From positions 5,952 through 69,951 of the IMG/VR virus record IMGVR_UViG_3300044801_000187: a stretch of DNA of 64,000 nucleotides; one strand, 5' to 3'. A program made the translations under genes and the position numbers. Origin of the DNA: a virus. Below, piece by piece: positions 7,933-44,743 of this stretch; positions within the stretch are counted from its first letter, which is position 1; each line of letters opens with the position of its first letter. The notes below the pieces were generated by a model. It worked only from the letters and a program-made list of their open reading frames with translations, searched no databases and had not been told where the DNA came from.

Positions 7933-7966
7933 GCCCCGCAAACGGCTGATTCCAGGGGGAATAAAG

Positions 7967-7997
7967 CCGGCCATTTCCCCCGCGCAAGGCGTATACT
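7967..7997 (+). promoter_or_regulatory. Putative promoter CCGGCC-N19-TATACT
   Basis: Upstream of the Ku RBS GGAGG; recurring motif. Confidence 0.65.
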
Positions 7998-8017
7998 GTG
8001 TCAGGAGGGAACATCAA

Positions 8018-19016: not shown

Positions 19017-19218
19017 TGGTTACCATCGTTTTTTCGAGCGCCGCTGCGGGCGCGGCCGCATCTAATAGACGAGGCGGATTTTACATGGTTACGAGGAAAA
19101 TACGCTGCGACGTGACAACGGTCGCAAACGGGGACTTTTCCGCCCCTAGAAAGAAGGGCTTGTGGGCGTAGTCCAGGCTGTGAAGCAGGCGCTAAGCCCG
19201 CAGGCGACAGGTGACCCG

Positions 19219-27479: not shown

Positions 27480-28034
27480 ATGAACAAAAACATCAAAAAT
27501 TTGATCGGTCAGAGGTTCGGCAGGCTCGTAGTGACTGAATACGCAGGAGCCACGGCGGGCGGAAAAGCCCAATGGACCACCGTCTGTGACTGCGGCGTAG
27601 AGACCGTGAAGACCGGAGTCTATCTGCGCAAGGGCATTACAAAAAGCTGCGGCTGCCTGCGGGGAGAGAACACCAAACTGCCTGAGGGGGTATCGGCGAG
27701 AAACTCTATCCTGCGTTCCTACAAAAAGCACGCCAAGGAGCGAAACCTCGTCTGGGAAATCTCAGAGTCGTTGTTCAACGATTTGACTAGCCGTCCGTGT
27801 TTCTACTGCGGCGTAACTCCTGGCAACAAGTACTCTAAAAAGGACTCCAATGGCGTCTTCATCTACAACGGCGTTGACCGGAGTGATAGCCACAAGGGAT
27901 ACTTTTTGGAGAATGTGGTACCGTGCTGCGCGATGTGCAACCGGGCGAAGATGGTGATGATCCGGGAGGAGTTCCTCTCATGGGTCGATAGGGTTTACCT
28001 CCACCAGCACAAAAGCGAGGCGGCGCGTGCTTAA
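27480..28034 (+). CDS. HNH-type homing endonuclease
   Basis: RFGRLVV, CDCG, KSCGC, PCFYCG and NGVDR..GY..NVVPCCAMCNRAK. Confidence 0.8.
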   Translation: MNKNIKNLIGQRFGRLVVTEYAGATAGGKAQWTTVCDCGVETVKTGVYLRKGITKSCGCLRGENTKLPEGVSARNSILRSYKKHAKERNLVWEISESLFNDLTSRPCFYCGVTPGNKYSKKDSNGVFIYNGVDRSDSHKGYFLENVVPCCAMCNRAKMVMIREEFLSWVDRVYLHQHKSEAARA

Positions 28035-30090
28035 AGTGTCAGACAAGCTCCCCAACATGCACTCCACGATGTTCAGGAAAATCCCCGTCGTCATACAGTG
28101 GCCCAAAGGCTCCACAAGAGTTGGCGAGCGGGAGGACGGAACGCCGTTCAAAACTGAAATGACGGCTGACTACGGGTATATTCCCGACACGGTAGCCGCT
28201 GGAGATTCTGAGCGCCTGGACATCTACATCGGGCCGAACGAGGACGCCGAGAACGCCTACGTCGTGGAGCAGATGAAGGAGGACGGCGAGACCTTCGACG
28301 AGTACAAGGTGCTGCTCGGCTTCGACAGCCTGGACGAGGCGGAGGAGACCTACCTGGAGCACGTCGAGGAGCAGCAGCTCGGCGACATCTCCGAGGTGCC
28401 GTTCGAGTACCTCTTCGACACGGTCATGGAGGAGCGCGGCGAGGACGAGGAGCAGGAGCGCGAAGAGATCGGCGCGGAGCTGGAGCAGGACGAGCAGAAG
28501 GTCGCGGCCGTAGAGCCGGACAAGGTCGACACCGACCCCGGCGTAGAGTTCAAAAGGATGTTCGAGTACCTGAACTCCCTCGGCTGGCTAGGCAGGAACC
28601 CGTGGTACCCAGAGAAGTGGCCGTTCTTCGCGATGCGCCTGTACAGCGACGGGTGGAAGTGGTCGCGGTGGGACAAGCCCGAGGCGGAAGGGAACAACCT
28701 CGCGGACCTGAAGAAGTTCCTGGCGCAGTTCGACCTCGGCAAGCTGAAGACCCCGAAGACGCCGACAACCATCAACGCGCAGCCTGTGCCCAGGAAGCTG
28801 AACGCGGGGCACGACGAGGAGCAGCACGGGGAGAAGCTGTCCGTGATCGACGCCTTCGTCAAACTCTACAAGCACGAGGTGGACTTCTACGAGGAGGTCG
28901 CCGCCATGGTCGCGGAGGAGCTCGACGGGGCGATCCAGGACGCGGGCATCCGCGCCATTATCACGCACCGCGCCAAGAAGCCGAACAGGCTGCGCGGGAA
29001 GCTCGTGAAGCGGGACCAGAACAGGCACTACCAGTCCTTCAGGGACATCAAGGACGACATCGTGGACCTGGCCGGGGTGCGCGTCGCGCTGTACCTCCCG
29101 AAGGACAGGGACGCGGTCGGCGGGATCATCGAGAAGCTGTTCGCCCCCGTCCGCGCCCCCAAGCGGTTCCCGGAGAACAGGAGCGAGGGGGACGGCGTCG
29201 GCTACGTGGCCACGCACTACCTCGTCCAGCTGCGCCCCGAGAACCTGCACAAGAAGGAGCTCCGCTACGCGGACACGAACGTGGAGATACAGGTCGCGTC
29301 CGTGCTCATGCACGCCTGGAGCGAGGTCACGCATGACCTGACGTACAAGCCGATCGCGGGGCCGCTGACGGAGGACGAACTCCGCATGGTCAACGACCTC
29401 AACGACGTGGTGCAGTCCGGCGAGGCGATCCTCAACGAGCTCCAGGAGGCCGTAGAGGGCCGCACCTCCAAGGAGCTCAGGTTCGACATCACGGCGGCGC
29501 TCACCGCGCTGGCCGGGAAGACGGCGGCGGGCAAGGTCACGTGGACGGAGACCATAGGCGTCGCGTCCAGGCTGGCGGCGCTGGACCAGAGCGGGGCGCT
29601 GAACGGGTACATGAAGGCCCTCGGCTGGGAGCAGATGGGGCCGTCGCAGTGGTACAGCCCGACCCACCCGCAGGACGTGGTCCACGTGTTCCACGACGGC
29701 TGGATTCACGCCCAGTGGGGCAGGAACATAGGCTCCGGGGACGGCGAGCAGGACCTCAAGGCGTGGCTCGGCCAGGTGGGCCTCGGGGAGGCGCAGCACC
29801 CGCACAAGCAGAGGCCCGTCACGCTCGGCGAGGGCGGCGTGCACACGAGCTACCTGAGGGCCAGGCTGGCGCTGTGGAAGGCCCACAAGGCGGACGAGCT
29901 GGATGACAGGCTGAGGGCGTATAATGAGACTCTGCCGAAGCTCCCGGTCGGAGACGAAAGGTACATGGAGCGGGCGCTCGACGCCCTGCACCCCGGCAAG
30001 AGCATGACGGAACTCTGGGCCCTGCCCAAGGACGAGTATCACAAGGTAATCGCCCTGGCGCAGGACTTAAAAAAGCAGGCAAACACCTAA
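28027..30090 (+). CDS. Polyvalent protein: inorganic pyrophosphatase plus RelA/SpoT synthetase domains
   Basis: PPase: DYGYI...D.ERLDIYIG...FDEYKVLLGF. RelA/SpoT: RAK...DLAGVRV...GY.ATHY...EIQV.S..MHAWSE..HDL.YK. Confidence 0.85.
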   Translation: MLKVSDKLPNMHSTMFRKIPVVIQWPKGSTRVGEREDGTPFKTEMTADYGYIPDTVAAGDSERLDIYIGPNEDAENAYVVEQMKEDGETFDEYKVLLGFDSLDEAEETYLEHVEEQQLGDISEVPFEYLFDTVMEERGEDEEQEREEIGAELEQDEQKVAAVEPDKVDTDPGVEFKRMFEYLNSLGWLGRNPWYPEKWPFFAMRLYSDGWKWSRWDKPEAEGNNLADLKKFLAQFDLGKLKTPKTPTTINAQPVPRKLNAGHDEEQHGEKLSVIDAFVKLYKHEVDFYEEVAAMVAEELDGAIQDAGIRAIITHRAKKPNRLRGKLVKRDQNRHYQSFRDIKDDIVDLAGVRVALYLPKDRDAVGGIIEKLFAPVRAPKRFPENRSEGDGVGYVATHYLVQLRPENLHKKELRYADTNVEIQVASVLMHAWSEVTHDLTYKPIAGPLTEDELRMVNDLNDVVQSGEAILNELQEAVEGRTSKELRFDITAALTALAGKTAAGKVTWTETIGVASRLAALDQSGALNGYMKALGWEQMGPSQWYSPTHPQDVVHVFHDGWIHAQWGRNIGSGDGEQDLKAWLGQVGLGEAQHPHKQRPVTLGEGGVHTSYLRARLALWKAHKADELDDRLRAYNETLPKLPVGDERYMERALDALHPGKSMTELWALPKDEYHKVIALAQDLKKQANT

Positions 30091-30110
30091 CCGCACCCCG
30101 AAGAGGCAGA

Positions 30111-30506
30111 ATGCGATCCGACCGCACGCTCCGGAAATGGTATAAGAGGATCAACAAGTTCTTCGACGGCGCGTGCCCCGACCGGGTGTGCGTGCGGTAC
30201 GCGAAGCCGGGCGAGGAGAAGCGGGAGATCGAGAAGAAGTACTTCGGCTGGGCGGACGACCCGAGCACCCCCACCTGGCCCCACGGCGAGAAGACCTGCC
30301 CGAACTGCCGCCACGACTTCGAGATCGTCCTGGACGAGAAGGCCCCCTGGATCAGCATCCTGTCCACCCTGGCGCACGAGATGATCCACCTCGCCACGAA
30401 CATGAAGGACGACCACGGCCCCGCCTTTTCCCAATGGCATGAGTACATTACGGAGCGCGGCATCTTCCGGAAGCACGCACTCTATCGCAACCACACGCTT
30501 TTTTAA
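30111..30506 (+). CDS. SprT-like zinc metalloprotease
   Basis: TLAHEMIH...DDHGPAF. Confidence 0.75.
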   Translation: MRSDRTLRKWYKRINKFFDGACPDRVCVRYAKPGEEKREIEKKYFGWADDPSTPTWPHGEKTCPNCRHDFEIVLDEKAPWISILSTLAHEMIHLATNMKDDHGPAFSQWHEYITERGIFRKHALYRNHTLF

Positions 30507-30508
30507 CT

Positions 30509-31011: not shown

Positions 31012-31025
31012 GTAGGGGAAAATCA

Positions 31026-34000
31026 ATGAGTTTGTTGGACAAAAAAGCAGCGAAGTTACCTAAAGGCTTTCGCGTTACCCTCCAAAAAGATAAAAGCGGA
31101 GTGTATTACGGCGTTATCTGGAAAGATGGTATTTTCTCAGGCACGTGTCCCATCGCGCATCAGCTTCAAGATACAGCCCGTGCTGCCGCCATTGGGTATG
31201 CTTGGGACATGTCAGGAGAACAGAGACCACCGGACAAACAAGCGTCTATGGACAAAGACGCTAAACTCCACGAGAACGCCTCGACGCAGATCGACGTTCC
31301 GACCAATGTTGCGGCGAAAATACTTGAGCTTAGCAAAGGGCTGATTCCTGATGATGCCCTCTCTGGGGATGGTCGCGTTGAGCATCTGCATTTGACCTTG
31401 AAGTACGGCGTCAAGCCCGACGCGGAGCTCCTCCGCCAGGCCCTCGTCGGCCAGCAGCCCTTCACCGTCACCCTCGGCAAGGTCATGGTCTTCGAGCCGT
31501 CGGAGACGACGGAGTCCCCCGTGGTCGTCGAGGCGCGGGCGGCCGAGCTCGGCCCGCTGCACGAGTCCGTGGGCGAGAAGATGGGCACCTTCCGCGACAC
31601 CTTCCCCTACAACCCGCACGTCACGGTCGCCTACGTCCGCCCGGACGCGGCTGAGCAGTTCGCGGGCAGCGACGCGTTCGCCGGGATCACGTTCCGGGCC
31701 AGCGCGGTCACCCTCTCCAAGCAGGACGACGACAACCAGGTGAAGCTCCCGCTCGGCAAGACGGCCGCCAGCCCAGGCGTGGCCCCGGAGATTCCGCAGC
31801 GCCCCGAGGTGAAGCGCGACGAGCCAGCCGTGGAGCCGCAGCCCGAGCCGGGGCAGAAGAAGCCCGCGCCCAAGAAGCAGCCCAAGAAAAAAATGACGCC
31901 GCAGGACGCCGACAAGCTAGTCGGGGACGCGGCGAGGAGGACCAGGAAGAAGCAGAGGCCGATGCGACCCACGGAGACCCCGCAGTTCAAGGCGTGGTTC
32001 TCTGGGTCGAAGATAGTGGGAGCCGACCGCAAGCCCCTCATGCTGTTCCACGGCACCACGCACGAGATCACGGAGTTCGACCCCGCGAGGGCGAGCGCCG
32101 AAGCGTGGTACGGCCCCGGCCTGTACTTCACGGACTCGAAGATAGACGTGGCGGCGAACTACGCCACGGACAAGGGCCCGGACATCACCCGGAACATCGA
32201 GAACCGTGCGGACTCCATCATGGACGACCTGCGCGAGGAGTACGAGGAGGCGAACGAGCACAGCCTGGACTACAACTCCGAGGACTACAAGGAGCTGTGG
32301 GCCAAGGCGTACGACACGGTCAAGGGTGAGTTCGCGGGGCCGAACCTCGGCGTGACAATGCCCGTGTACGTCAACATGAAGAACCCGGTCTACGTGCTCA
32401 AGAAGGGCGGCACGGAGTTCAACATCGACTTCGACGAGGAGACGGGCGAGGAGTCCGGCAGCGGGCTGGCGCTGTACAACGCCCTCAACCTCGCGGGCGG
32501 GAACTTCGGGGGAGACACGGGCAAAATCTGGGAGAGGATCACGGAGAACGGCACCGAGTTCAGCGCGTGGGACTTCGAGGACGCCGTCCGCGCGAGCGAC
32601 GACATACAGGACGACGAGGGGCGCATGGTCCCCGGGAACCTCATCGCGCAAATCTACCAGAAGATGAACTTCGACGGCATCGTCCAGGACGCATGGAACA
32701 CGTTCGGCGGCGGCGCGTACAAGAAAGATTACGGCGACGACTCTGGGATAGGCATGAAGATGGACAAGGGCGCGAGGCACTACATCCTGTGGGACCCGTC
32801 CAAGGTCAAGAGCGCGATCGGGAACGTCGGCACGTTCAGCCCGAAGAGCCCCAGCATCGTCGCGTCCGCCAGCCCCGCGCTCAGGCGGTGGTTCGGCGCG
32901 TCCAAGGTCGTGGACGACAGCTTCGAGCCCCGCGTGGTCTTCCACGGCAGCAAGTCCCCGTGGGTCACGTCGTTCGACATGGGCATGGAGGGCACGGGCG
33001 TGCACGGCTCCATGAAGTGGGGCGCGATCTGGTTCACCTCCAGCGCGGAGAACGCCGAGGAGTTCGCCGACACGCCGGAGGAGAAGACCGAGGCCAGCAT
33101 CGACGAGGTCACGGTGTACGGCAATGACCCGTACTACGCGGCCGTGTTCGACATTAACGGTGAGAGCCTGTTCGAGGTCGGCCCACACCCGACTGAGGAG
33201 GAGGCGCAGCGCGACGGCGCGACGCAGGCGACGGAGTACAACAAGCACCTCGGCGAGAACACGAACGTGCAGGGCTACTACCTGAAGATCGTCAGGCCGT
33301 ACGTCACCGACCAGGTGCCGAGGGAGAAGGAGTTCGAGGCGGCTAGGGCGGGCAAGCACGACGGGATCATCGCCAAGGACGTGATAGACGGATACACCCG
33401 CAGCGACGTGTTCGTGGTGTTCAGCCCCGCGCAGGTCAAGTCCACGCGCAGCGTGAAGTTCGACCCCGCGAGCGCCCATCTCACGGCTGCGGGCGGGAAG
33501 TTCCCCTCGTTCGCGCAGTACATCAAGAAGAACGGCGGCGTGATCAAACTGCTGGAGTCCATGGGCGACGCGTGGAACCACTACGTGGAGACGGCGGGGA
33601 TGGCCGTTGACGGCTTTGACGAGCTCCCCCCGGCGGAGCAGGAGAAGGCGGCCGAACAGTACGCCTATGAGGACCTGGCGAACCAATACGGGGACAGGGT
33701 GCACTTCTTCCGGGGCGTGATGTACCCCACGGCGATCTACCGCAAGGTTAAGCTGAAGAGCCGCGAGGAGCTGAACACGGGGAAGGTCGGCGTGTTCTGG
33801 TCCTGGAGCGAAAGCAAGGCTGAGGCGCATTGGAGCACGGGCGGCGGGAACACCGTCACGCTGAGGGCGGAGCTGGACAGCCCCAACCAGGTTGACTGGG
33901 ACGACACGATGTTCGTCAACCTCGACCCCAGCACCGGGGAGAACGAGGACGAGTGCCGCCTGAAGGAGGGCGCTAAGCTGAGGCTCACGGGCGTAAACTG

Positions 34001-37000
34001 GGGCGACGAGCAGCAGCTCTCCGGCCAATGGGGCCAGCCCCCGCAGGCAACGGTCACGGCGGCGGTGGAGCCGGAGGCGAAGGAGCGCCTCGACACGCTG
34101 GGCCAGGACGTAGTGGAGGAGAGGACGATCGGAGACTACGACCTGTTCGTCACCTACGACAGGAACTTCGGCGTGTACCAGATCGGCATGCAGCGCGTCG
34201 GGATGGACGCCTCCGACATCGGGCAGCAGGCCGAGCGGCAGCGGCAGGACAGGGGGCGCGGCGACAGGCGCGAGCTCGTGGCCACGGTGCAGGGCTGGGT
34301 CGACAAGTACCACCTGCTCATCATCGGCAGCATGAACCCCGCAAAGACCGAGAAGTACGTCCGCCTGCTCCGCATGCTGGGGTTCAAGCCGATCCAGAAA
34401 GAGCTCATGGGCATCCCGTTCGCCATGCTGACGGACGGAACGGTGAAGCTCGGCTCCATCAAGATCGCGGGGCGCAAGGACGCCGTGACCAGCCTCGTGA
34501 TGAGGGCGGACGCGGAGGGCTTCCCGGAGGTGCGGGTGCGCTGGGAGGGGCTGCGCTGGCGTCAGGTGCTCAAGGCGGTCAAGGCGATCGCGGGCGAGGT
34601 CGCGGGCCATCGCGTGCCGTGGGACGACATCCAGATATTCAACTCGCCGTGGAAGAGCCTGGACGAGCAGGAGGCTGGCTGGCACAGCAGCAAGTCGAGC
34701 GGGCAGGTCATGTTCGACGTGCTCAAGAACGGCTCGTGGGTCTCCGTGGGGGCGTCGTACAGGCCCGAGGCGGAGGCGCTGGGGGCCACGGAGCACCCGT
34801 GGGATGGCAACGCCGCCTACGAGCAGCACGCGCTCAACATGTTCGCCGCGAAGCAGGTAGGCAAGGACATCGGCGGGCAGCCCGAGTGGGTGCTGGGGCG
34901 CGTCGCCGCGTGGGAGAAGGTCGCGACGGAGATGGTCCTCCCGGCGGGCACCGCCCTGTACCGGGGCGTGGGCGAGGAGAAGGTCGAGCCAGCCAGCGTA
35001 GCGGCGGACGGCTGCCTGTGGACCACGCAGAGCCCGACCATGGCGAGGACGTACATCCCCGCGTCCGGCCTCACGCTGTACACCAGCCTGAGGGCGCTCG
35101 TCTCGCCGCCCGACGACCGCAGCGGCACGGGGGACGTCCAGAAGCAGCTCGGGTACGAGTTCACGGACGTCGACTACAAGGGGCAGATCAGGGCGCAGTC
35201 GTTCCGCTACCCCGCCGTCCGCGAGCGGCTCGTCTCCGGCACTCCGGTGCCCGAGAGGCCCGCCGACACGAAGGACAAGGCGGCGATGAACGCCTACTAC
35301 GAGGCCTGGGACAGGCGCAACGCCGAGGCCGACACGAAGTTCGCGGAGTGGGTGAAGGCGAGGCTGAAGGAGTACGGGTACGAGCCGGAGAAGCGCGGCG
35401 GCGAGGAGAGCTACAAGCTCTACGTCACGCTCAAGAACGGCAAGGAGGAGCTGCTCCAGAACGAGTACCAGCAGGGCACGCTGCTCACGTTCGAGACGCT
35501 TGAGCCGCTCCGCATCTTCGACATGACGGAGGGCGGCAGGCGCGAGGGCGACCTGATGGACCCGCAGTACCGCGAGTACTCCAAGTTCGAGCAGCTGGCG
35601 AAGGCCGGGTACGACGGGGTCAGGATCGCGGACTTCGCGCAGTCCGAGGACCAGGGCAACGTGGGGCACGACGCCATCGGCCTGTTCCAGCGGGCGCTCC
35701 CGAAGATCAGGGAGGCGAGGCGCGAAGCGGCCGCGCACCCGAAGGACCTGTGGGCGGAGGCGAAGAAGTACGGCTCGCACAAGACGCCGCCGCTCAGCGA
35801 CACGCGGTACGAGAACCCGGAGCGGGGCATGGAGACCAACGCCTACGCGGACATCCCGGAGAGGGTGAAGGGCATCTACGAGACGCCGTCCCTGGAGGAG
35901 CTCGCCCCGCAGATGTTCAAGCGGTCGTCGCACTTCCAGTTCCCGTCCTTCGCGGACTACCTGAAGGCGCACCCGGAGACCCTGGAGAACCCTGGCGACG
36001 AGGAGGAGTACGCCCACAAGGAGATCAACTACGACGACACGGTCGCCGGGCTGGACTTCGACTTCCCGCTCATCGTGTACCGCTCCGTGGAGCTGCCGGA
36101 GGGCACGCCGCCGAACTTCGAGGAGACGGGCGTGTTCTGGTCGTCCAACGCGGACTCCGCGCAGGCGTACTTCGGCTCCACGTCCATTTGGAGCCCGAAG
36201 ACGACGGAGCCGAAGGCGGAGACGCACGAGGTCATGATCGCGGCGCAGGTGCTCAAGCCCGAGGACGTAGAGTGGTACCAGACGCTCGTGGCAAACGTGC
36301 TCAACCCGGAGGAGAACGAGGTCACCGTCGTCAAGGGCTCCCAGCTCCGCCTCGTGGCCGTAGACGGCAAGAAGGTGAAGAGGCGCATGATCACCGCCGC
36401 GTTCTCGGAGCAGCAGAATCAGGTGCAGCACACCGACCACAAGGCGATCGGCATGAGCAAAACGCTCAAGGGTGACCCGTTCGCCGAGGAGTACGCCCTC
36501 CTGCACGGCGGGGCGCAGCCGAGCCTGGGTCCGCCCGCGTCCGACGCCCCGCCGAAGGGCATCGCCCCGCACGCGGAGGGCGAGGAGGACCTCGCGGTAA
36601 TGCAGGGCCAGGCGATGAAGCAGGGCGCTTCCCCGTTCGTCTTCGGCGACCCGTCGGAGAGAGACAAGACCTACACGACGGACAAGGGCGAGACATTCGA
36701 GCGCCTGCCGGGCGAGCAGGGCGACGAAACGCCCCCGAACAAACTGTTCGAGAAGCAGTACGGCAAGCCGTTCGACACGAGGAAGTTGCCCGAGTCGCCG
36801 AAGCGCCCCGTCACGGAGACGCCCGAGTTCAGGGCGTGGTTCGGGGACTCCAAGGCCGTGAACGCCAAAGGCGAGCCGCAGATGGTGTTCCACAGCACGC
36901 GGGCGAAGGTGGACTTCGAGGAGTTCAAGACGTCCCCCGTGAAGGAGGAGGGCGGCTGGGCGGCGAAGTCTAAGCCCGGCGACCCGTTCGACGCGATAGG

Positions 37001-38048: not shown

Positions 38049-38081
38049 CTTGACTTTCACCGCCGCTAGCGGAGGTCAAAA

Positions 38082-39044
38082 ATGCCGAATAACGGATACA
38101 AGTTCTCCGATGAAAGCCGCGCTAAAATGCGTGCGGCTTGGAAACGCAAAAAGGCTCGCGGATACAAGCATTTTCGGGTGCTGGGGGGCGAGGAGCAGGA
38201 AATAAGGGACGAGGCCCGCCAGCGGGGGGACAAGTACTATTTTTTCCAGCGCCCGTGCAAGTTCGGGCACAAGGCTAAGAGATTTGTTAAATCCACAGCC
38301 TGTGCAAAGTGTTCATATGACCAGCGGTATAGGCGGAGAAAAATCCGCCTCAAAAAGGAGCCTGAACTAATGCTGTACTACTCCGCCAAGCGGCGAGCGC
38401 AGGAACTAGGTGTCCCGTTCTCCCTTACGTTAGATATTATTCGATCCGTTTGGCCGAATGACGGACGCTGCCCGGTTCTCGGCCTAGCCCTAGAGCGCCA
38501 CGGCGAGGCGCGTAACAATTCCGCCTCTCTGGATAGGATTGACCCCCGCTGCGGCTATGTGCCGGGCAACGTCTCCATAATCTCGCATTTGGCCAACAGA
38601 ATAAAGTACACGGTTACAGACCCAGAATTTTTTGAGCGCCTAGCGGGCTGGATGGCCTTCCCGCGAGCCGGATTCGGTGATCCCCAGCATGCCTGTGTTC
38701 GACCGCGTAGTCGACGCTCCTGTTACCGCATGTGGGACACCGCGAGGCGCTACGCCTTGAAAAACAACGTCTCCTTCAACCTAAGCCCGGAAGACATATT
38801 GCCGGTCTGGCCGCGCGGCAATCGCTGCCCCATCCTGCTGGTTCCGTTTGAGAGGAACACTACAAGGGGGCCGTGCCCAACTTCACCGACCCTGGATAGG
38901 ATAATCCCAAAACTGGGGTACACAAAGGGAAATGTGGCGGTTATATCCTATACCGCTAACAGAGCAAAAAGCGATGAGATTGATCCAGAAACCTTCAGGA
39001 AGATCGCCGCGTGGCTGAGGAGACTGGGAGGGGAAAATGGGTAA
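38082..39044 (+). CDS. Homing endonuclease with tandemly duplicated nuclease-like domain
   Basis: Two copies of WP...CP.L...S..LDRI.P..GY..GNV..IS..AN; lower GC. Confidence 0.75.
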   Translation: MPNNGYKFSDESRAKMRAAWKRKKARGYKHFRVLGGEEQEIRDEARQRGDKYYFFQRPCKFGHKAKRFVKSTACAKCSYDQRYRRRKIRLKKEPELMLYYSAKRRAQELGVPFSLTLDIIRSVWPNDGRCPVLGLALERHGEARNNSASLDRIDPRCGYVPGNVSIISHLANRIKYTVTDPEFFERLAGWMAFPRAGFGDPQHACVRPRSRRSCYRMWDTARRYALKNNVSFNLSPEDILPVWPRGNRCPILLVPFERNTTRGPCPTSPTLDRIIPKLGYTKGNVAVISYTANRAKSDEIDPETFRKIAAWLRRLGGENG

Positions 39045-39819
39045 GTCTCCGTTGCTTAGGGCCGTGCTACATAAGGGCTTCGCAGTGACGGCGACCGAGG
39101 TCTGGGACCCTACGAAGTTCGTCAAGTACGAGGCCAAGACGGCGGCGGAGGCCAGCCCCGCGTTCTACCACCTCAGCAGGCGCACCAACCGTGGCTCCAT
39201 CAAGGCCAAGGGGCTGCTGCCGATGATCAAGGAGTACAAGGACCTCAAGCGCAGGCCGGGGGTGTTCTTCTTCAAGGCCGAGGACATGGCCAAGAACTAC
39301 GGCTTCTACTTCGCGCAGTACATCAACCAGGCCGTGGACGTATGGGAGGTCAGGTTGCCGGACGGCTACAAGATCAGCCCCGACACGCACCCCGACATGG
39401 AGGGCTTCAACGCGTGGGTCGGCTACGACTCCGTCCCGCCGGAGAACCTCAGGTTCGTCGTAGACACCGTCCTAGTGCCCACGTCAAAGAGCGAGCCGAC
39501 CCAAGTCAAGAGCGCGGCGGAGGAGCACGAGGACTCGTTCTACTGGTTCGAGCCGGGCTTCCCCGAAGACGCCAGGAAGTTCGTCATGGCGAACAAGGAC
39601 CAGGGCAGGACGGAGTTCTGCGAGAAGGAGTCCCGCGCCTGGGCCAGCAGGCTAGCGGCGGCGGGCTTCCCCGTAGAGCTCGTCAAGGGCGACTACCCCA
39701 GGCATGCCCGACGTCGCGCTGGTGGCGGAGCACTGGTGGGTGGAGGTCGGCGGCAGGATATTCGACCCGACCGCGATCCAGTTCGGCGACGCCAAGCCCG
39801 AGCGCGGCATGTACGTTGA
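39037..39819 (+). CDS. Polyvalent protein part 2a (ART-like module, start of Cys-His-Asp module); frameshift near 39697
   Basis: FYHLS...SIKAKGL...GVFFF; FCEKES whose HWW/DPT residues lie in the 39704 frame. Confidence 0.7.
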   Translation: MGKSPLLRAVLHKGFAVTATEVWDPTKFVKYEAKTAAEASPAFYHLSRRTNRGSIKAKGLLPMIKEYKDLKRRPGVFFFKAEDMAKNYGFYFAQYINQAVDVWEVRLPDGYKISPDTHPDMEGFNAWVGYDSVPPENLRFVVDTVLVPTSKSEPTQVKSAAEEHEDSFYWFEPGFPEDARKFVMANKDQGRTEFCEKESRAWASRLAAAGFPVELVKGDYPRHARRRAGGGALVGGGRRQDIRPDRDPVRRRQARARHVR

Positions 39820-42800
39820 GTGGGACAGGCACAAGCAGGACTCCGACCTGGTGAAGGACCCGGCGAAGGGCGGCTGGTGGCTGAACAGGACAAGCGCGGA
39901 CAAGGTGCTCGACGTCGGCGGCGAGGGCGAGGAGGGCGACGAGTACTGGGCGGGCGAGGGCAACGCCGCGTCCGGCGTCCTGCCCGTGTGCCCGAAGAAG
40001 GGGACGGTGTGCCTCGCGTGGCGCTCCTCCCAGGTCGTGTCCCCGAACTGCTGGGGCACGATCGGGGGCGCTGTGCAGGAGGGAATGAGCCCGCGCCAGA
40101 GCGCGAAGAGCGAGATGGCGGAGGAGACGGGCTTCGGCGGCGGCATCACGCTCATCCCGGCCTACGTCTTCACCGACCGTGGCTTCTCGTACCACAACTT
40201 CATCGGCGTCGTGGGCGCGGAGTTCTCGTTCCACCCCGGCGAGGGGCACGGCTGGGAGACGGACCACATCGCGTGGGTGCCGTACCAGGAGGTCCTGGCG
40301 GACATGAAGAAGAGCCCGGGCGACTACCACCCAGGCATGCTCAAGCTGTTCTCCGCGTCGGGGGCCAAGATCGAGCAGGCGCTAGGCATCAAGAAGCAGG
40401 CCGCCTACACGCCGCTCCCGCCCGAGCTACAGGCGCTACGCGCCAAGTACGAGGCGCGGGGCGTGGCCGTGGAGCTCGCGGCGAGCGACAGGAACGGGCC
40501 GACCCTGAGCCTGGACGCGATCGTCGTCCCCAAGGAGAGGAGGGGCGAGGGGATCGGGTCCGAGTTCATGGAGGAGCTCGTGCGCTGGGCGGACGCGAAC
40601 GGGACGACCGTGTTCCTGACGCCGTCCAGGGACTTCGGGGCGACCTCCGTGGGCAGGCTGCGCGACTTCTACGCCAGGTTCGGCTTCAAGCGCAACATGG
40701 GGCGCAACAAGGACTTCCGCTCCTGGGACGCGATGGTGCGCCAGCCGCGCAAGGCCAAGCAGGCGTGGCAGGAGATCGTCCACAGCGACCCCAAGGGCGA
40801 CACGACGGGCGGCATCCTGGAGAGCGACGAGGAGCTGGCGGAGTGGGCCAGGGACTCGGCGAGCGTCGAGGACATGGAGGGCTTCATGAAGGCCCTCGCG
40901 GGGACGAAGAAGGTCGGCGTCATAGACGCCATGAACTCCTGGTTCCCGGGCGTCGGCAACGGCACGGACATGCTCAACAAGTTCGTCGCCGAGTGCAAGG
41001 CGAAGGGCTGCGACGCGGTCGTGCTCCAGGCGGCGGTCATGAACCAGCAGCGCGAGGGGTTCAGCCTCGTGAAGTGGTACGAGCGCCACGGCTTCAGGGA
41101 GTTCGGCTACAGCAAGGGCATCGGGCCGATGATGGTCAAGTGGCTGAAGCCAAGCCTCCTCAAGAGCAAAAAGAAGAAGGGCGGCGCGGTCGAGTTCAGG
41201 GACGAGAACCGCGACTACCACAACGAGCAGAGCGACATGACGCTCCGCGCCTTCGCCGACGGCAAGGAGGTCGGCCGCGTGGAGTACGCCATCTTCCGTG
41301 GCGAGCCGTCCGTGCAGTGGATCGAGGTCAACGACAAGGGGAAGGGCTACGGCCCCGCGCTGCTCAAGGAGCTCCAGCGCATGTTCCCCGACAAGCAGAT
41401 CGACCTCGGCTACACGACGGACGAGGGCACCAAGATGGTGGACAAGCTCAAGTTCCGCGAGGAGCCGACGGAGGAGGCCCCGCTCTTCGAGGAGCTGAAG
41501 GAGCTCGTCAAGGAGAGGGACTGGCTACAGGGGATCGCGGACAGGTTCTTCACCAAGGAGACGCACACCGAGGAGGAGAAGGCCGAGTTCAGCAAGCAGA
41601 TGGAGCGCATGAACGCCGTGCACGACCGCATCTGGGAGGTGGAGCAGGCTACCTACGGCAAGTCCCCCGCGAAGCGCCTCATCGCGTCTAGGGTCAACCC
41701 CGAGATGCTCAAGCAGGTGGCCTGGGAGGTGCGGGAGAGGATGCTGCCGGACAGGGACGCCCAGGGCGGCGACTGTCAGGAGGTCTCCGACTGTCAGGAG
41801 GTCTCCGACGCGATCGTGGACGAGCTGCACAAGCGCGGCTTCGAGGACGCCTTCACCATGCACGGCCAGTGGGAGGGGCTGCCGCAGCACCCCCACGCCT
41901 GGGTGGAGGTCGCGGGCTACCAGGTAGACGCGACGCGGGACCAGTTCGCCATGTTCATGGACGACCCCGCCAAGGAAGAGGAGCTCCTCGACAACCCCGT
42001 CATGGTCAAGAAGGCGGCGCAGGGACAGCTCTTCCCCGACTCCATGGACGCGAGGTTCCGCCGCTGGTTCGACGGCTCCAAGGTCGTCGACAAGCGGGGC
42101 CAGCCCCTCTCCGTCTACCACGGCACCCGCTCGTCCGTGGACTTCCAGGAGTTCAGCGTGTCCGGCCCGCCGTACCAGGACAAGTTCTTCGAGGACCAGC
42201 CGACGTCCTCGGGCAGCGGCGCGGACCCGACGGCCGTGATGGGGGCGCACTTCGCCGAGGAGGCGAACGTGGCCAACCAGTTCGCCATGGGCGAGGGGTG
42301 GACGCGCTCGCGCTACGAGGGCGAGAACCCGATGCCCCGCGTGCTCAAGGTCTACCTGAGGATCACCAACCCCAAGGACTTCGGCAGCGAGCACAACCTG
42401 CGCGAGTTCATCAACCAGGGGAAGGTGCACGGCGACGCGACGGACCTGGCCATGCAGTACCAGCTCGGCGTGGACGCGTGGGAGGCCGAGGACAACGCGG
42501 CGGCGCAGGAGTGGTACCAGAAGTACGACAGCGACACGGCGTTCCGCGCCGAGGCTAACCGCTACCTGTTCGAGGAGCACCGCAACGTGGAGGGCGACGA
42601 CGTCCTCCTGAGCGACGCGGCGTACGACCTCGCCATGGAGGCCAGGCAAAGGCTCCAGACGGCGGGCCACGACGGCGTCCGCTACAAGAACGTGGTGGAG
42701 GGCGGCCACGCCTGGATCGCCTTCGAGCCGAACCAGATCAAGTCCGCCTGGGCGCAGCAGTACGACCCGAGCAGCCCGAGCATCACGGCGTCCAAGAGGG

Positions 42801-44743
42801 CGGACTGGACGAGGGTCGTCGGCCTGGAGGAGGCGGGGCCGGGCGAGTGGGTCAACGTGTGGGACAGGCTGCCGACGCAGGACGGCACGTACCGCGTCCG
42901 CATGTTCACGGGCATAGAGCGCGAGGCGTGGTGGAACAGCGAGCGCCGCCGCTGGCAGCAGAACGAGAAGCCAGCCAAGGGGCGCAACTTCCACCGCCAG
43001 CTCCAGAAGGCCATGAACTCCCGCAACTCCTGGTGGCTGGACCCGGCCGCCGCGCCGAAGACGGCGAGCGCCACGACCTACTACCACGGCGGGGCCAACA
43101 TCCCAGACGCGGTCCTGGACGTCAGGAAGGGCCGGAGCGGGGCGATTTTCGTCACGACGGACGTGGACTACGCCAAGCAGTACGTCAAGACCATGGGCGG
43201 CGGCCTGTACGCTGTCACGCTGGACGACCGCAAGATATTCGACCCGAGGAACCCGGAGCACCTGGAGAACCTCCAGCAGGGATACCTCAACCTCGTCCCT
43301 GAGGACTACGCCGACGAGGATGACGCATTGAGCGACTATGAACGGTTCGTCGGGCAGAGCCCCGAGATGATGATGGACTGGGGCGTCGCGCCGGACGCCT
43401 TCGACGCCATCAAGTCGCTGGGCGAGTACCAGGGTATGTTCATGCGCGAGCGCCCGGGCAAGATCACAAAAGGGGAGAAAGGCTACGAGGTCAGCGGCCA
43501 GCCGATCGAGAGCGTGGCGCTGTTCGACAGGAAGGTGCCCGCCCGCAGGATCGCGTCCAAGACCGCCGAGGTGTTCACCAGGCAGGACCCGCAGCAGGAC
43601 CCGCCCCAGCTCCGCAGCTTCGAGGAAGTCACCAAACCCCAGGAGGAGACGACCGCGCCCATCAAGCTAGCGGGCTGGGAGCCGCCGAAGGGCACATACT
43701 GGCACGGCACCACGTGGGAGGCGGCGAAGAAGATCGACAAAGAGGGACTGAAAGCCGGGCACGGCTCGAACCCGAAGTACCAGGACAAGTACATCTGGTG
43801 CACGACGTATCCCGGCAAGGCCTTCGAGCACGGGCAGTCGATCTCCTGGCACGAGCTAGACAAGCCCGACGAGGCGGCCGTGGTCGAGTTCGCGTGGGAC
43901 GGCGAAGTAGAGCAGGACCCGGAGCACCCAGGCCAGCCTGAGTACCTGCGCGTCTCCTCGGACATCCCGCGCTCCGCGATCAAGCGCATCGAATGGTACA
44001 AGGGCGGGGAGAAGGTCAAGACGGCGAACCTCCAGTGGGTCAAGAGGGCGGCGGGCTTCGCGTTCAAGTCCTTCAGGAAGCTGTGGCACGTCGGAACCCT
44101 GAACCCGAGGGACAAGCGGGACGACAGCTACGAAGGCGCGGGGCTGTCCGTCAGCGTGAACCCCGAGGAGTGGCAGCAGATCGCCGGGATCGGTGGGGAC
44201 CTGTGGGAGCTGGCGAAGAGCGGCAACAGGTTCGTGAACTTCCGCCGCATGACCAAGGCGCAGAGGAAGGCCATCCGCGAGTGGGGCGTGAAGGAGGGCT
44301 ACGCCGCCCCGGCGGAGCTGTGGCGTCACTCCTACTGGGACGACGAGGTCGGGGAGGGGGAGTGGCGCTACTCGGACTTCGACTCGAAGGCGGAGGCGGA
44401 GGCGGAGGCGGAGGCGGAGCTCGGCGGATACGGCGGCGGCGAGCAGGAGAAGGTCGAGCCAGTGGAGGGCGGCCTGAAGGCGACGCCGAAGCTGGAGCAG
44501 AAGACCCTGAGGAAGAACATCAGCCCCGTGGAAATGGACGACCTGCTGGTCACCGCCTACGCCGAGGACGTGCTGGACTGCGACGGCGTGTGGTGGGCGG
44601 ACACGCTGGACCCGGAGAACCTCTCCGCACCGAGGGGCGTGATCTTCCCGTCGAAGCTCCCCGAGTGGGCGAAGAAGAGGGTCAGCGGGCGGAGAAGAAA
44701 AAGCTCCGCGACGCGAGGAAGAAGGGGCGGTCTACCAGGCTAG
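39704..44743 (+). CDS. Polyvalent protein part 2b: Nudix, three GNAT-like, Cys-His-Asp and several ART-like modules
   Basis: GGAVQEGMSPRQSAKSEMAEETG; RRGEGIG..FY.RFGF; GVGNG..WYERHGF; KGKGYG; DCQEVS..HAW..DAT; VYHGT, YYHGG, YWHGT and LWHVG. Confidence 0.85.
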   Translation: MPDVALVAEHWWVEVGGRIFDPTAIQFGDAKPERGMYVEWDRHKQDSDLVKDPAKGGWWLNRTSADKVLDVGGEGEEGDEYWAGEGNAASGVLPVCPKKGTVCLAWRSSQVVSPNCWGTIGGAVQEGMSPRQSAKSEMAEETGFGGGITLIPAYVFTDRGFSYHNFIGVVGAEFSFHPGEGHGWETDHIAWVPYQEVLADMKKSPGDYHPGMLKLFSASGAKIEQALGIKKQAAYTPLPPELQALRAKYEARGVAVELAASDRNGPTLSLDAIVVPKERRGEGIGSEFMEELVRWADANGTTVFLTPSRDFGATSVGRLRDFYARFGFKRNMGRNKDFRSWDAMVRQPRKAKQAWQEIVHSDPKGDTTGGILESDEELAEWARDSASVEDMEGFMKALAGTKKVGVIDAMNSWFPGVGNGTDMLNKFVAECKAKGCDAVVLQAAVMNQQREGFSLVKWYERHGFREFGYSKGIGPMMVKWLKPSLLKSKKKKGGAVEFRDENRDYHNEQSDMTLRAFADGKEVGRVEYAIFRGEPSVQWIEVNDKGKGYGPALLKELQRMFPDKQIDLGYTTDEGTKMVDKLKFREEPTEEAPLFEELKELVKERDWLQGIADRFFTKETHTEEEKAEFSKQMERMNAVHDRIWEVEQATYGKSPAKRLIASRVNPEMLKQVAWEVRERMLPDRDAQGGDCQEVSDCQEVSDAIVDELHKRGFEDAFTMHGQWEGLPQHPHAWVEVAGYQVDATRDQFAMFMDDPAKEEELLDNPVMVKKAAQGQLFPDSMDARFRRWFDGSKVVDKRGQPLSVYHGTRSSVDFQEFSVSGPPYQDKFFEDQPTSSGSGADPTAVMGAHFAEEANVANQFAMGEGWTRSRYEGENPMPRVLKVYLRITNPKDFGSEHNLREFINQGKVHGDATDLAMQYQLGVDAWEAEDNAAAQEWYQKYDSDTAFRAEANRYLFEEHRNVEGDDVLLSDAAYDLAMEARQRLQTAGHDGVRYKNVVEGGHAWIAFEPNQIKSAWAQQYDPSSPSITASKRADWTRVVGLEEAGPGEWVNVWDRLPTQDGTYRVRMFTGIEREAWWNSERRRWQQNEKPAKGRNFHRQLQKAMNSRNSWWLDPAAAPKTASATTYYHGGANIPDAVLDVRKGRSGAIFVTTDVDYAKQYVKTMGGGLYAVTLDDRKIFDPRNPEHLENLQQGYLNLVPEDYADEDDALSDYERFVGQSPEMMMDWGVAPDAFDAIKSLGEYQGMFMRERPGKITKGEKGYEVSGQPIESVALFDRKVPARRIASKTAEVFTRQDPQQDPPQLRSFEEVTKPQEETTAPIKLAGWEPPKGTYWHGTTWEAAKKIDKEGLKAGHGSNPKYQDKYIWCTTYPGKAFEHGQSISWHELDKPDEAAVVEFAWDGEVEQDPEHPGQPEYLRVSSDIPRSAIKRIEWYKGGEKVKTANLQWVKRAAGFAFKSFRKLWHVGTLNPRDKRDDSYEGAGLSVSVNPEEWQQIAGIGGDLWELAKSGNRFVNFRRMTKAQRKAIREWGVKEGYAAPAELWRHSYWDDEVGEGEWRYSDFDSKAEAEAEAEAELGGYGGGEQEKVEPVEGGLKATPKLEQKTLRKNISPVEMDDLLVTAYAEDVLDCDGVWWADTLDPENLSAPRGVIFPSKLPEWAKKRVSGRRRKSSATRGRRGGLPG
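41771..41806 (+). repeat. Perfect 18-bp tandem duplication (DCQEVS x2)
   Basis: gactgtcaggaggtctcc gactgtcaggaggtctcc. Confidence 0.9.

Follow-up and report, generated by a model that had tools for sequence, protein, structure and literature searches.

Do the short peptides that recur between the modules of giant phage proteins mark points at which those proteins are cut, and if so, by which enzyme? The question is raised by a 64,000-nucleotide stretch of viral DNA (hereafter the window; positions 5,952 to 69,951 of IMG/VR record IMGVR_UViG_3300044801_000187), in which four ORFs were originally predicted to encode effector polyproteins punctuated by a [K/I/V/L]-x-A-[A/S/G] tetrapeptide, packaged in the virion and cut at that motif by a phage protease. 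Proteolytic processing of polyvalent proteins has been proposed before: Iyer et al. (2017) predicted that these proteins are delivered with DNA and released by proteolysis. As the processing enzyme they put forward an embedded zincin metallopeptidase or, alternatively, an assemblin-like domain at the C-terminus; the zincin is the commonest hub domain, and about 36% of members have an embedded peptidase (PMC5512222). The ORFs of the window and the genes that bear on their processing are as follows.

28027..30090, + strand: ORF A, polyvalent protein of 687 amino acids (Pfam, and comparison with the 447-amino-acid ortholog in the related genome G003)
30111..30506, + strand: SprT-like zincin metallopeptidase ORF with the motif HEMIH (Pfam PF10263, E 5.9e-7)
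31026..38048, + strand: ORF B, polyvalent protein of 2340 amino acids (Pfam)
38082..39044, + strand: HNH-like homing endonuclease cassette that splits a polyvalent gene
39037..39819, + strand: ORF C, 260 amino acids (reading frames)
39704..44743, + strand: ORF D, polyvalent protein of 1679 amino acids (Pfam)
44947..45675, + strand: probable papain-like (C1-type) cysteine peptidase (phrog_19005)

ORF A comprises, in order, an InPase domain (aa 14–127), an inserted module of ~100 amino acids, a RelA/SpoT domain (aa 314–441), a second extra module and a C-terminal part. ORF B has an N-terminal module, a 2H phosphoesterase domain, four ART-PolyVal matches and several unnamed modules, and ORF D a NUDIX, a GNAT, a C..H..D and an ART-PolyVal domain together with further modules. 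The public gene call for ORF B (P0008) begins at M75. ORF C is probably continuous with ORF D by way of a frame change near 39697–39704, which the C..H..D domain straddles. Matches in these ORFs reached E-values of 1.1e-47 and 1.9e-16 for ART-PolyVal (PF18760, matched five times in the whole record) and 1.5e-29 for InPase (PF18823). This multi-enzyme content agrees with the original identification of the ORFs as polyvalent proteins, and, like the proteins described by Iyer et al., they are phage-encoded and combine ART-PolyVal, InPase, 2H, NUDIX, GNAT and RelA/SpoT domains in single polypeptides (PMC5512222).

The neighboring genes provide a phage context (rIIA/B, Ku and an exonuclease). The window is syntenic with positions 291–331 kb of G003, a complete 332-kb relative of the Tunturiibacter jumbo phage Tunturi_5, and both G003 and a second related genome, G001, share with Tunturi_5 the head protease (61–64% identity) and the major capsid protein (72–73%). 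The source is thus a soil jumbo phage of the Tunturi_5-like lineage that infects soil Acidobacteriota, and the ORFs at 28027, 31026 and 39037/39704 are its polyvalent proteins. In both the window and G003, the polyvalent genes stand among early and DNA-metabolism genes, outside the head module, a placement that tells against a head-protease reading; the polyvalent gp321 of Tunturi_5, by contrast, is encoded among virion genes.

All 21 tetrapeptides listed in the original prediction were in frame at their coordinates, and the MKTVTAG noted at 27368 was present. Using expected counts from shuffles of the window ORFs, and reversed motifs as controls, we found that the motif as originally written was too degenerate: it occurred 33 times in the four ORFs, near the chance expectation of 24.4 (P~0.055), and 59 times in the remaining window proteome, where 63.2 were expected. 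A looser form that allows T or N at the fourth position gave 45 matches versus 33.1 expected (P~0.026), of which the list had included 21. A narrow core of the motif was nonetheless strongly enriched in the four ORFs, with 10 occurrences of [KIVL]TA[AS] versus 0.8 expected and 10 of KxAA versus 3.0, and reversed controls of the two showed no enrichment there. The refined motif, defined as K.A[AS] or [ILVM]TA[AS], was found 18 times in the four ORFs (5.2 expected) and 17 times in the other 64 ORFs (12.3 expected), which placed all four polyvalent ORFs within the top 5 of 68.

The same core recurred in relatives. Twelve related polyvalent proteins (P0009–20) contained 57 [KIVL]TA[AS] sites versus ~5.0 expected (reversed control, 3 versus ~4.7), whereas 29 distant polyvalent proteins contained 24 versus ~22.7. 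Ranking 79 long ORFs out of 79 IMG/VR ART-PolyVal loci by the observed-to-expected ratio, which had a median of 1.12, we found that the top seven came from only four records (L019, L013, L012 and L042). Because the codons at the motif sites vary, the signal lies at the level of the peptide. The junction peptide is specific to this lineage and takes the form K-x-A-[A/S] or [I/L/V/M]-T-A-[A/S], occasionally with G, T or N in the last position.

To judge whether the peptide sits at module boundaries, as had been claimed for nearly every recognizable boundary, we counted a site as supported if a homolog had the motif at the aligned position, if homology broke there, or if the boundaries of local matches clustered there. 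By this measure 17 of the 21 listed sites had independent support, and those at 31041, 43058, 43664 and 44042 had none. Of the 24 loose matches that the list had passed over, about 18 fell inside domains or had no boundary evidence, and some boundaries have no motif, such as those near B1575 (KYGS) and B1630 (FKRS). The supported sites, together with LNAG at 28798, are given below.

28498..28509, + strand: KVAA (A aa158), bordering the inserted module on its upstream side; the G003 ortholog has KIAG there and is without the next ~100 amino acids
28798..28809, + strand: LNAG (A aa258), bordering the inserted module on its downstream side, absent from the original list; the match to the G003 ortholog restarts directly after it
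29518..29529, + strand: KTAA (A aa498), KTAS at the same point in the G003 ortholog, which is without the extra module that follows the site in the window
31758..31769, + strand: KTAA (B aa245), after the 2H domain; aligned KQAA, KTAA, KTAA and KAAA, with 3 HSP ends nearby
32856..32867, + strand: IVAS (B aa611), after ART-PolyVal 1; aligned ITAS/ITAA in homologs
33480..33491, + strand: LTAA (B aa819); aligned VTAA/ITAA/VTAS, with 31 local-match ends and 12 starts nearby
34053..34064, + strand: VTAA (B aa1010); aligned VTAA/ITAA, with 15 ends and 4 starts nearby
34461..34472, + strand: KIAG (B aa1146); aligned KTAG/KIAG/RLAG, with 13 local-match starts nearby
34917..34928, + strand: KVAT (B aa1298); 20 local matches begin directly after it
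36390..36401, + strand: ITAA (B aa1789); aligned VTAA/ITAS/ITAA, with 11 ends nearby
37401..37412, + strand: ITAS (B aa2126), after ART-PolyVal 4; aligned ITAS/ITAA/FTAS, with 12 HSP ends nearby
37713..37724, + strand: KNAA (B aa2230), before a C-terminal module of ~110 amino acids; aligned KQAA in P0009 and KTAA in P0020
39136..39147, + strand: KTAA (C aa34); the peptide that follows the same upstream module is ITAS in P0020 and KVAA in the G003 ortholog of ORF D
39508..39519, + strand: KSAA (C aa158); P0020 and P0018 alignments stop 4–5 amino acids earlier, and P0018 carries LTAS at the corresponding module end
40394..40405, + strand: KQAA (D aa231), after NUDIX; the P0020 alignment stops exactly here, and P0020 has KTAS two residues further on
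42008..42019, + strand: KKAA (D aa769), before ART-PolyVal; 15 HSPs start in the 25 amino acids that follow, the motif not being kept in aligned homologs
42782..42793, + strand: ITAS (D aa1027), after ART-PolyVal; aligned ITAS/ITAA/FTAS/VTAS, with 8 HSP ends nearby
44018..44029, + strand: KTAN (D aa1439); aligned KTAA in P0020, with the HSP stopping 2 amino acids later

Homology itself tended to begin and end at these peptides. A BLAST HSP ended within 6 amino acids of 40 of 67 motif sites, compared with 10.5 for random positions (maximum of 20 in 1000 trials), and the ends peaked exactly on the fourth motif residue (41 versus about 5 per offset) and the starts on the first (24 versus about 8), although these HSP-end tests are partly circular because a shared motif itself prolongs alignments to the junction. 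In a search of 1.84 billion proteins, all five listed sites in B 612–1811 fell on clusters of local-match boundaries. Comparisons among relatives placed module exchange exactly at the motif, bearing out the suggestion that modules are added, swapped and split. The G001 and G002 orthologs diverge directly after KTAA/KTAS or directly before VTAS/KTAA, and ORF A differs from its G003 ortholog by two extra modules, one at KVAA..LNAG and one after KTAA. The module of ~110 amino acids flanked by KNAA..KTAA in the window is flanked by KTAA..ITAS in P0020 and is N-terminal in G003, where KVAA follows it. The homing endonuclease cassette at 38082..39044, for which the sole family match was a weak one to NUMOD3 (E 0.23), separates modules that are contiguous in P0020, and the end of the last module of ORF B is duplicated across it at the start of ORF C.

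The proposal that a head protease does the cutting had to be examined in relatives, which are the source of all the protease, scaffold and capsid observations that follow. No head protease gene was matched in the 69,951-b source record; this phage's own protease is unseen because the record is only 38% complete and without head genes. The protease is present in G003, G001, G006 and Tunturi_5 and has 547 homologs at E≤1e-5. It occurs in three of the four motif-rich records (the fourth being a 70% fragment) and in none of eight records with ≥90% completeness and motif-poor polyvalent proteins, a co-occurrence confounded by shared descent, as one lineage carries all these genes. Among 120 listed homologs we analyzed the 62 for which both core anchors could be located. 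In these, K.A[AS] was abundant in the N-terminal arm (104 versus 9.5 expected, with at least one site in 61 of 62) and the C-terminal arm (48 versus 5.8, with at least one site in 58 of 62) but depleted in the core (4 versus 7.8). The x position varies freely in the arms while K, A and [AS] are kept, the N-termini carry K-T-A-N-A, and both arms are of low confidence and apparently disordered in an AlphaFold2 (AF2) model.

The same model (pLDDT 57) suggested, weakly, a gp21/assemblin-like fold for the protease, which had no Pfam match: the top three Foldseek matches were T4 gp21 (best E 0.015), and the best VIA match was again T4 gp21 (5jbl_C; Z 6.8, which the tool grades as middling; rmsd 3.4 over 128 aligned amino acids), with herpesvirus proteases at Z 4.8–5.5. 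A scaffold-like protein also has the motif near its C-terminus. Its C-terminal tails contained the motif in 107 of 120 cases versus 65 after shuffling, usually as [VI][TV]AS and, in 62 of 120, with exactly 17 residues after it; like the protease counts, these are not independent events, because the homologs are related by sequence. Relative to local composition the enrichment in G003 was moderate (10 versus 2.6; reversed control, 5), and the G001 scaffold-like protein fell outside the 22 proteins most enriched in the motif.

In Tunturi_5, K.A[AS] was concentrated in the ejection protein (10 versus 1.74), gp332 (6 versus 1.23), the polyvalent gp321 (4 versus 1.43), the protease (2 versus 0.33) and the capsid protein (2 versus 0.22), compared with 4 versus about 3.4 in total in 15 other proteins tested. 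The KLAA of the capsid protein is uninformative, because the capsid N-terminus is conserved throughout. An N-terminal leader followed by the motif showed no proteome-wide excess (8 versus 6.7 and 5 versus 5.6), and the term 'mass spectrometry' is absent from the text of the Tunturi paper. The head-protease proposal thus gains from the motif in the protease arms and scaffold tail of relatives, while no head protease gene was matched in the record itself.

Several other accounts of the junction peptides deserve weighing. One is that Ala/Lys/Thr-rich composition, together with after-the-fact picking of examples, produced the pattern, as the near-chance count of the original motif and the selection of fewer than half of its loose matches might suggest; T/A/S-rich tail-fiber-like proteins of G003 also bear LTAS/VTAA. 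However, the narrow motif recurs in independent relatives, where its reversed control is flat, and lies at junctions to the residue, and we regard this account as largely refuted and most improbable. The tetrapeptide might instead serve as a conserved linker or domain cap, carried along with its module in duplication and recombination and never cut, the giant proteins acting intact; the N4 virion RNA polymerase is reportedly packaged unprocessed. In many cases the site is indeed the conserved end of a duplicated ART-PolyVal module, an upstream F-D-P-x-S-P-S consensus dominates the logo, and P0016 has GSNS-ITAA about ten times in what resembles a recent internal duplication. Iyer et al. also refer to polyvalent proteins that remain uncut on transfer, which counts for this account (PMC5512222). 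We nevertheless consider it rather unlikely: the motif also comes after unrelated modules in varied upstream context, its x position and codons vary while K, A and [AS] are kept, the same ART-PolyVal modules occur without it outside the lineage, and the enrichment in the protease arms and scaffold tail would be unaccounted for.

If the junctions are cut, two other peptidases could be responsible. A zincin-type metallopeptidase, either the SprT-like ORF at 30111–30506 or the embedded HELCH domain of relatives, might act in cis or in trans, in the head or after injection. It would leave unexplained both the motif flanking the head protease core and that of the scaffold tail; an embedded HExxH is missing from all four window ORFs, G001, G002 and Tunturi_5 have no standalone SprT homolog at E≤0.001, and no tetrapeptide specificity is known for SprT/Wss1-type enzymes. 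Even so, the SprT-like ORF separates ORF A from ORF B, with an ortholog at the same place in G003 (58–63% identical), PF10263 is fused within P0012, P0014 and P0015, a HELCH/HELAH zincin motif is embedded in P0009, P0012–15 and Tunturi gp321, and zincin processing is what was already predicted in print (PMC5512222), but on this evidence we judge a zincin to be an unlikely agent. Far less probable is the papain-like cysteine peptidase at 44947–45675, which the original prediction put forward and which adjoins ORF D directly downstream. The only ortholog found, in G003, comes after other large K-T-A-[AS]-bearing proteins at 272–283 kb, its Cys/His motifs look papain-like by eye, and one Atlas neighbor cluster is 20% Peptidase_C1. 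Yet it had no Pfam, NCBIfam or PDB sequence match, would not explain the protease-arm and scaffold sites, and had no homolog at E≤0.001 in G001, G002 or the complete genome of Tunturi_5, which makes it a weak candidate because Tunturi_5 has the junction motif (KAAA/KSAA).

The motif, then, is enriched, specific to the lineage, placed at junctions where modules are exchanged, and common to polyvalent junctions, protease arms and scaffold tail. This shared distribution points to the prohead protease, and because the motif also flanks the capsid protease of the lineage, the polyproteins are probably cut into many effectors inside the head. We therefore favor, as somewhat better than an even bet, the reading in which the junction motifs are prohead-protease cleavage sites in head-packaged polyproteins. 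From the same distribution we infer packaging, cleavage itself, the scissile bond and the identity of the protease as a sequence of steps: the polyproteins would be built into the prohead, where the head-maturation protease, with its putative gp21/herpesvirus-assemblin-type fold, would cut the junction peptides, presumably after the Ala by analogy with assemblins, dicing them during capsid maturation into some 25 free effector modules that would be delivered with the DNA, as T4 delivers Alt. Alt, an ADP-ribosyltransferase, is packaged in the head, has both its ends trimmed by gp21 and is ejected (PMC9026906, PMC10052503).

As with T4 gp21, phiKZ gp175 and SPN3US gp245, a degenerate motif is common to protease termini, scaffold or core, capsid and ejected proteins. 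Their motifs end in Glu (L/I-x-E, S/A-x-E or S/A/G-x-E, and A-x-E), after which the cut is made, whereas the junction motif (K/hydrophobic-x-A-[A/S]) contains none, and if the junctions are substrates the specificity of the protease differs accordingly. Moreover, the substrates of those phages mostly lose propeptides, whereas each protein considered here would be cleaved at as many as a dozen internal junctions, which would amount to true polyprotein dicing. Another parallel is the herpesvirus assemblins, whose R- and M-sites likewise have Ala followed by Ser or Thr, one site releasing the protease and one lying near the scaffold C-terminus; the scaffold-like tail motif resembles the M-site, and pseudorabies virus assemblin cuts after Ala in YLQA-T and VQA-S (PMC4498786). 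Unlike herpesviruses, this is a bacterial virus in which Lys is preferred at the first position and effector polyproteins are the putative substrates, and the fold match is moderate. Polyproteins of eukaryotic RNA viruses similarly string modules together with short conserved protease sites between them, but their domains, protease and genome type are unrelated, and the processing considered here would occur inside a DNA-phage prohead. With respect to Iyer et al., whose passages on processing give no cleavage motif, our analysis defines a lineage-specific junction tetrapeptide, and the evidence points to a separate head-maturation protease acting in trans rather than to embedded peptidases (PMC5512222).

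We advance only tentatively the fuller proposition that throughout a large soil jumbo-phage lineage a prohead protease of herpesvirus-like specificity (K/hydrophobic-x-A|A/S) dices head-packaged polyproteins at every junction. If it is true, each virion would inject about 25 separate, ready-made anti-host enzymes. As one and the same short site closes each module, modules could be inserted, swapped or split without loss of processing. The universal junction would be a plug-and-play adaptor through which recombination and homing-endonuclease cassettes could add, swap or split modules while their processing is kept.

ORFs A, B and D, which begin at 28027, 31026 and 39704, are polyvalent proteins as defined by Iyer et al. 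(2017; PMC5512222), and ORFs C (39037) and D look like one gene split by a frame change near 39697–39704. The two lie in different frames and share a 116-nt overlap, and a Cys..His..Asp domain (transglutaminase/papain-like) seems to cross the frame change beside a CCCC run; a second, intact copy of the domain lies at residues ~690–750 of ORF D. An assembly error, a true frameshift and programmed slippage are all conceivable origins of the frame change. The window is high in GC, and besides the polyvalent ORFs it encodes rIIA/rIIB, a Ku-like protein, an exonuclease and a methyltransferase. A near-identical DNA search of the region against the phage collection gave no match. The features referred to below are:

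27480–28034 and 38082–39044, HNH-like cassettes that interrupt polyvalent genes
28027, ORF A, 687 aa, InPase and RelA/SpoT domains
30111–30506, SprT-like zincin ORF between ORFs A and B (PF10263, E 5.9e-7)
31026, ORF B, 2340 aa, 2H phosphoesterase and four ART-PolyVal matches
39704, ORF D, 1679 aa, NUDIX, GNAT and ART-PolyVal
44947–45675, probable papain-like peptidase downstream of ORF D

Beside an HNH-like cassette, a stub at 27368 (MKTVTAGKLPNMHST...) duplicates the N terminus of ORF A. Similarly, the end of the last ORF B module (...YYKVLWSPNTVVKYQ, then stop) recurs across an HNH-like cassette at the start of ORF C (...EVWDPTKFVKYEA-KTAA); both modules flanking the 38082–39044 cassette are contiguous in the ORF B homologue P0020, and the cassette is absent from the related phage record G003. 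A ClpX/ClpB-like AAA+ protein (19162–21738, 858 aa) carries an intein with Hint and LAGLIDADG at residues ~117–515, which its 405-aa G003 orthologue lacks.

The original prediction held that the modules of ORFs A–D are punctuated by a tetrapeptide, [K/I/V/L]-x-A-[A/S/G], and the 21 tetrapeptides that it listed are all present where it placed them, among 45 matches in these ORFs to a loose form that also takes T or N at the fourth position. As written, the motif was not clearly enriched (33 strict matches versus 24.4 expected from shuffles, P ~ 0.055), and the remaining window proteome had no excess of it (59 versus 63.2 expected). Narrower forms, in contrast, were strongly enriched in ORFs A–D, with 10 [KIVL]TA[AS] sites versus 0.8 expected and 10 KxAA sites versus 3.0, while reversed and other control motifs were flat. 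A refined motif, K.A[AS] or [ILVM]TA[AS], occurred 18 times versus 5.2 expected (reversed motif, 7) but only 17 times versus 12.3 in the other 64 window ORFs, and it placed all four polyvalent ORFs among the top 5 of 68. The observation is thus partly confirmed, in narrower form. At the motif sites threonine is mostly encoded by ACG, but this codon accounts for 63% of all threonine codons in these genes, and the alanines use varying codons; a DNA-level signal is thereby ruled out, and the signal lies in the peptide. Upstream of [YFW]HG[TSG] anchors the motif was weakly concentrated (within 30 aa of 12 of 62 anchors, versus 6.1 expected), and a proteome-wide count of N termini with a leader followed by the motif showed no excess in G003 (8 versus 6.7) or in G001, another related record (5 versus 5.6). 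The Ku-like protein (7931–8920) ranked third of the 68 window ORFs by the refined motif, with four sites versus 1.17 expected (KSAA 33, KNAS 62, KSAA 125 and KPAS 150), two of which fall within the first 65 residues and outside the Ku match; packaging and processing are conceivable for this protein as well.

We located module boundaries by the ends of local homology. Within the clade set, an all-against-all BLAST put an HSP end within 6 residues of 40 of 67 sites, versus 10.5 for random positions (maximum of 20 in 1000 trials), and matches to the motif as originally written that lay outside the narrow form were at background level (35 of 191). HSP ends peaked exactly at motif residue four (41, versus about 5 per neighboring offset) and HSP starts at motif residue one (24 versus about 8), peaks that the reversed motif did not produce. 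The test is to some extent circular, since alignments are carried on to the junction by the shared motif. As an independent check, we compared ORF B residues 612–1811 with 1.84 billion representatives, which gave 149 local matches, not counting the query protein. The five listed sites in this segment (residues 819, 1010, 1146, 1298 and 1789) all fell on clusters of match boundaries, with at least 11 boundaries each, where a count of 8 was reached by a random position in 24% of cases, and none of three unlisted loose matches (residues 1084, 1344 and 1754) did so. A MAFFT alignment of the segment with 59 of the matches (4811 columns) had clearly misaligned rows and was left aside. Overall, the placement of the motif at module boundaries was independently supported for 17 of the 21 listed sites and went without support for those at 31041, 43058, 43664 and 44042. 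The first 74 residues of ORF B, including the KKAA at 31041, are of uncertain translation because the public gene call (P0008, 2266 aa) begins at Met75. Another tetrapeptide, KQAS at 31236, immediately precedes the 2H domain, and six homologue alignments start there. Two boundaries that lack the motif in the window bear it in relatives (KYGS versus TTAS near residue 1575 of ORF B, and FKRS versus FTAA near residue 1630).

Comparisons between relatives placed module changes at copies of the motif, which bears out the claim that modules are added, swapped and split there. Orthologues from G001 and the related record G002 were similar until KTAA/KTAS and then divergent, and at other places they were divergent until VTAS/KTAA and then similar. 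ORF B ends in a ~110-aa module bordered by KNAA and, on the far side of the HNH cassette, KTAA; its borders in P0020 are KTAA and ITAS, and in G003 it forms the N terminus of the next gene, with KVAA and then another module after it. ORF A carries two ~100-aa modules that are missing from its 447-aa G003 orthologue, one lying between KVAA and LNAG, the G003 counterpart of which is one KIAG, and the other following KTAA, the equivalent of which in G003 is KTAS.

Homologues of ORF B showed how far the motif extends. Among 41 other large proteins, the 12 closest (P0009–P0020) contained 57 [KIVL]TA[AS] sites versus about 5.0 expected (reversed motif, 3 versus about 4.7), whereas the 29 distant polyvalent proteins contained 24 versus about 22.7. 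One of the close homologues, P0016, has about ten copies ending in S-ITAA that separate different modules. Querying with the aligned ART-PolyVal modules of the window, four in number, we collected 79 IMG/VR loci holding ART-PolyVal and ranked their 79 long ORFs by observed/expected ratio: the top seven all came from four records (L019, L013, L012 and L042), and the median ratio was 1.12. Searches for related loci with P0002 or P0016 as whole-protein queries returned no relatives. The motif is therefore specific to one phage lineage rather than a property of the ART-PolyVal domain.

This lineage can be followed into more complete genomes. The window from 14.8 to 62.6 kb is syntenic, in inverted orientation, with 291–331 kb of G003 (332,300 b, completeness rating 100%), with the order ORF A, SprT-like ORF, ORF B and ORF D preserved, and both G001 and G003 encode the head protease and major capsid protein of Tunturi_5 (61–64% and 72–73% identity, respectively), a cultured 309-kb Tunturiibacter myovirus of Acidobacteriota (PMC11924767). 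In gp321, the polyvalent protein of Tunturi_5, the junctions directly ahead of ART-PolyVal starts are KAAA (three times), KSAA and ITAG, and the tight [ILV]TA[AS] form was not found. Another block of G003 (272195–284661) encodes proteins of 619, 1493 and 1339 aa with K-T-A-[AS] sites and no Pfam domains, followed by the orthologue of the 44947 papain-like gene.

The head protease itself carries the motif. In three aligned proteases, copies lie in weakly conserved arms that flank a conserved core, with K-T-A-N-A at the N terminus. The family comprises 547 homologues at E ≤ 1e-5, on contigs of up to 894 kb, and its protease/scaffold/capsid set belongs to a widespread soil jumbo-phage lineage. 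Among 120 listed homologues, 62 had both core anchors placed, and in these K.A[AS] occurred 104 times in the N-terminal arm (mean 51 aa) versus 9.5 expected, 48 times in the C-terminal arm (mean 43 aa) versus 5.8, and 4 times in the core versus 7.8, counts that exceed the number of independent events because the sequences are related. At least one site was present in 61 of 62 N-terminal arms (19.5 expected) and 58 of 62 C-terminal arms (14.6 expected). Position x varied freely (KTAS, KIAA, KTAA, KVAS, KLAA, KMAA and others) around a fixed K, A and [AS], which argues for selection on the motif. An AF2 model of the protease (43 sequences, pLDDT 57) had low confidence in the arms and moderate confidence in the core; its three best Foldseek chains were T4 gp21 (E 0.015), and VIA-align gave Z 6.8 for gp21 (rmsd 3.4 over 128 aa) and 4.8–5.5 for three herpesvirus proteases, weak evidence that is suggestive of a gp21/herpesvirus-protease-like fold. 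Sequence searches of the PDB with the protease and the 44947 protein returned nothing or noise. Pfam matched none of the G003 protease, scaffold-like and capsid proteins (240102–245088, L103), and of seven further G003 proteins four had no match and three had weak, uninformative ones; NCBIfam named the capsid protein alone, as an HK97-fold major capsid protein.

The protease is followed by a gene for a scaffold-like protein. Of 120 C-terminal tails of this protein, 107 bore the motif, versus 65 after shuffling, usually as [VI][TV]AS and with exactly 17 residues beyond it in 62 of the 120, a position that recalls the herpesvirus scaffold M-site. By K.A[AS], the scaffold-like protein and the protease ranked first and second of 363 G003 proteins, the former with a moderate excess over local composition (10 versus 2.6; reversed motif, 5). 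The G001 ranking was headed by polyvalent proteins with the protease fifth of 272, and the scaffold-like protein was outside the 22 most enriched. In Tunturi_5 the ejection protein (10 versus 1.74 expected) and gp332 (6 versus 1.23) were enriched, as were the protease, gp321 and the capsid protein, the KLAA of which is uninformative because the entire capsid N terminus is conserved; 15 other Tunturi_5 proteins had 4 sites in total versus about 3.4. The protease family was present in three of the four motif-rich records, the fourth being a 70% fragment, and in none of eight records at least 90% complete with motif-poor polyvalent proteins, a co-occurrence that is confounded by shared descent.

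We lean toward a reading in which the lineage's prohead protease cleaves at the junctions. On this view the polyproteins would be packaged into the head and diced by this protease during head maturation, and the modules would be delivered with the DNA, as T4 delivers Alt (PMC9026906). The original prediction, of packaged polyproteins cut into separate effectors, is partly supported, through the junction peptide, the module exchange and the motif copies in the protease and scaffold-like protein, which point to the prohead protease. The motif as first written gives no such support, the polyvalent genes sit among early-type genes in the window, and the window's own record, a 69,951-b IMG/VR phage sequence estimated at 38% complete, contains no head genes. 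The reading is further weakened by the rank of the G001 scaffold-like protein, the moderate excess in its G003 counterpart, the uninformative capsid KLAA, the flat proteome-wide leader count and the weak fold evidence. The strongest competitor, itself unlikely, is that the junction is a conserved linker that is left uncut. Cutting by a zincin peptidase, as proposed in print, has in its favor that the peptidase is conserved beside or within these proteins, but it leaves the motif in the protease and scaffold unexplained, and we hold it to be improbable too. Processing by the papain-like 44947 protein, for which the complete Tunturi_5 genome gave no homologue, seems quite doubtful, and chance is the least credible explanation of all.

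That peptidases process polyvalent proteins was predicted in 2017 (PMC5512222), with neither a defined site nor a defined enzyme. Literature searches and passages of PMC5512222, PMC10052503, PMC7824862, PMC11924767, PMC4498786 and PMC9026906 gave no cleavage motif for these proteins. Well-known prohead-protease motifs have Glu as their last residue (T4 L/I-x-E, phiKZ S/A-x-E and SPN3US A-x-E; PMC9026906, PMC10052503), unlike the junction motif here, which has no Glu and instead resembles herpesvirus A|S sites such as YLQA-T and VQA-S of pseudorabies virus (PMC4498786). A defined, Glu-less junction motif of this kind, and its use at nearly every polyvalent-protein module boundary, appear to be new. 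Because a concrete motif is now tied to a protease family and to the cultivable Tunturi_5, virion mass spectrometry can put the processing prediction to a direct test. If correct, the reading would define a third specificity class of gp21/assemblin-type phage proteases, mirroring the herpesvirus enzymes, and would allow giant phage ORFs to be divided by rule into single effectors, such as the candidate alarmone, cyclic-nucleotide, NAD and ADP-ribosylation enzymes encoded here. It would also account for the evolution of polyvalent proteins through module exchange.
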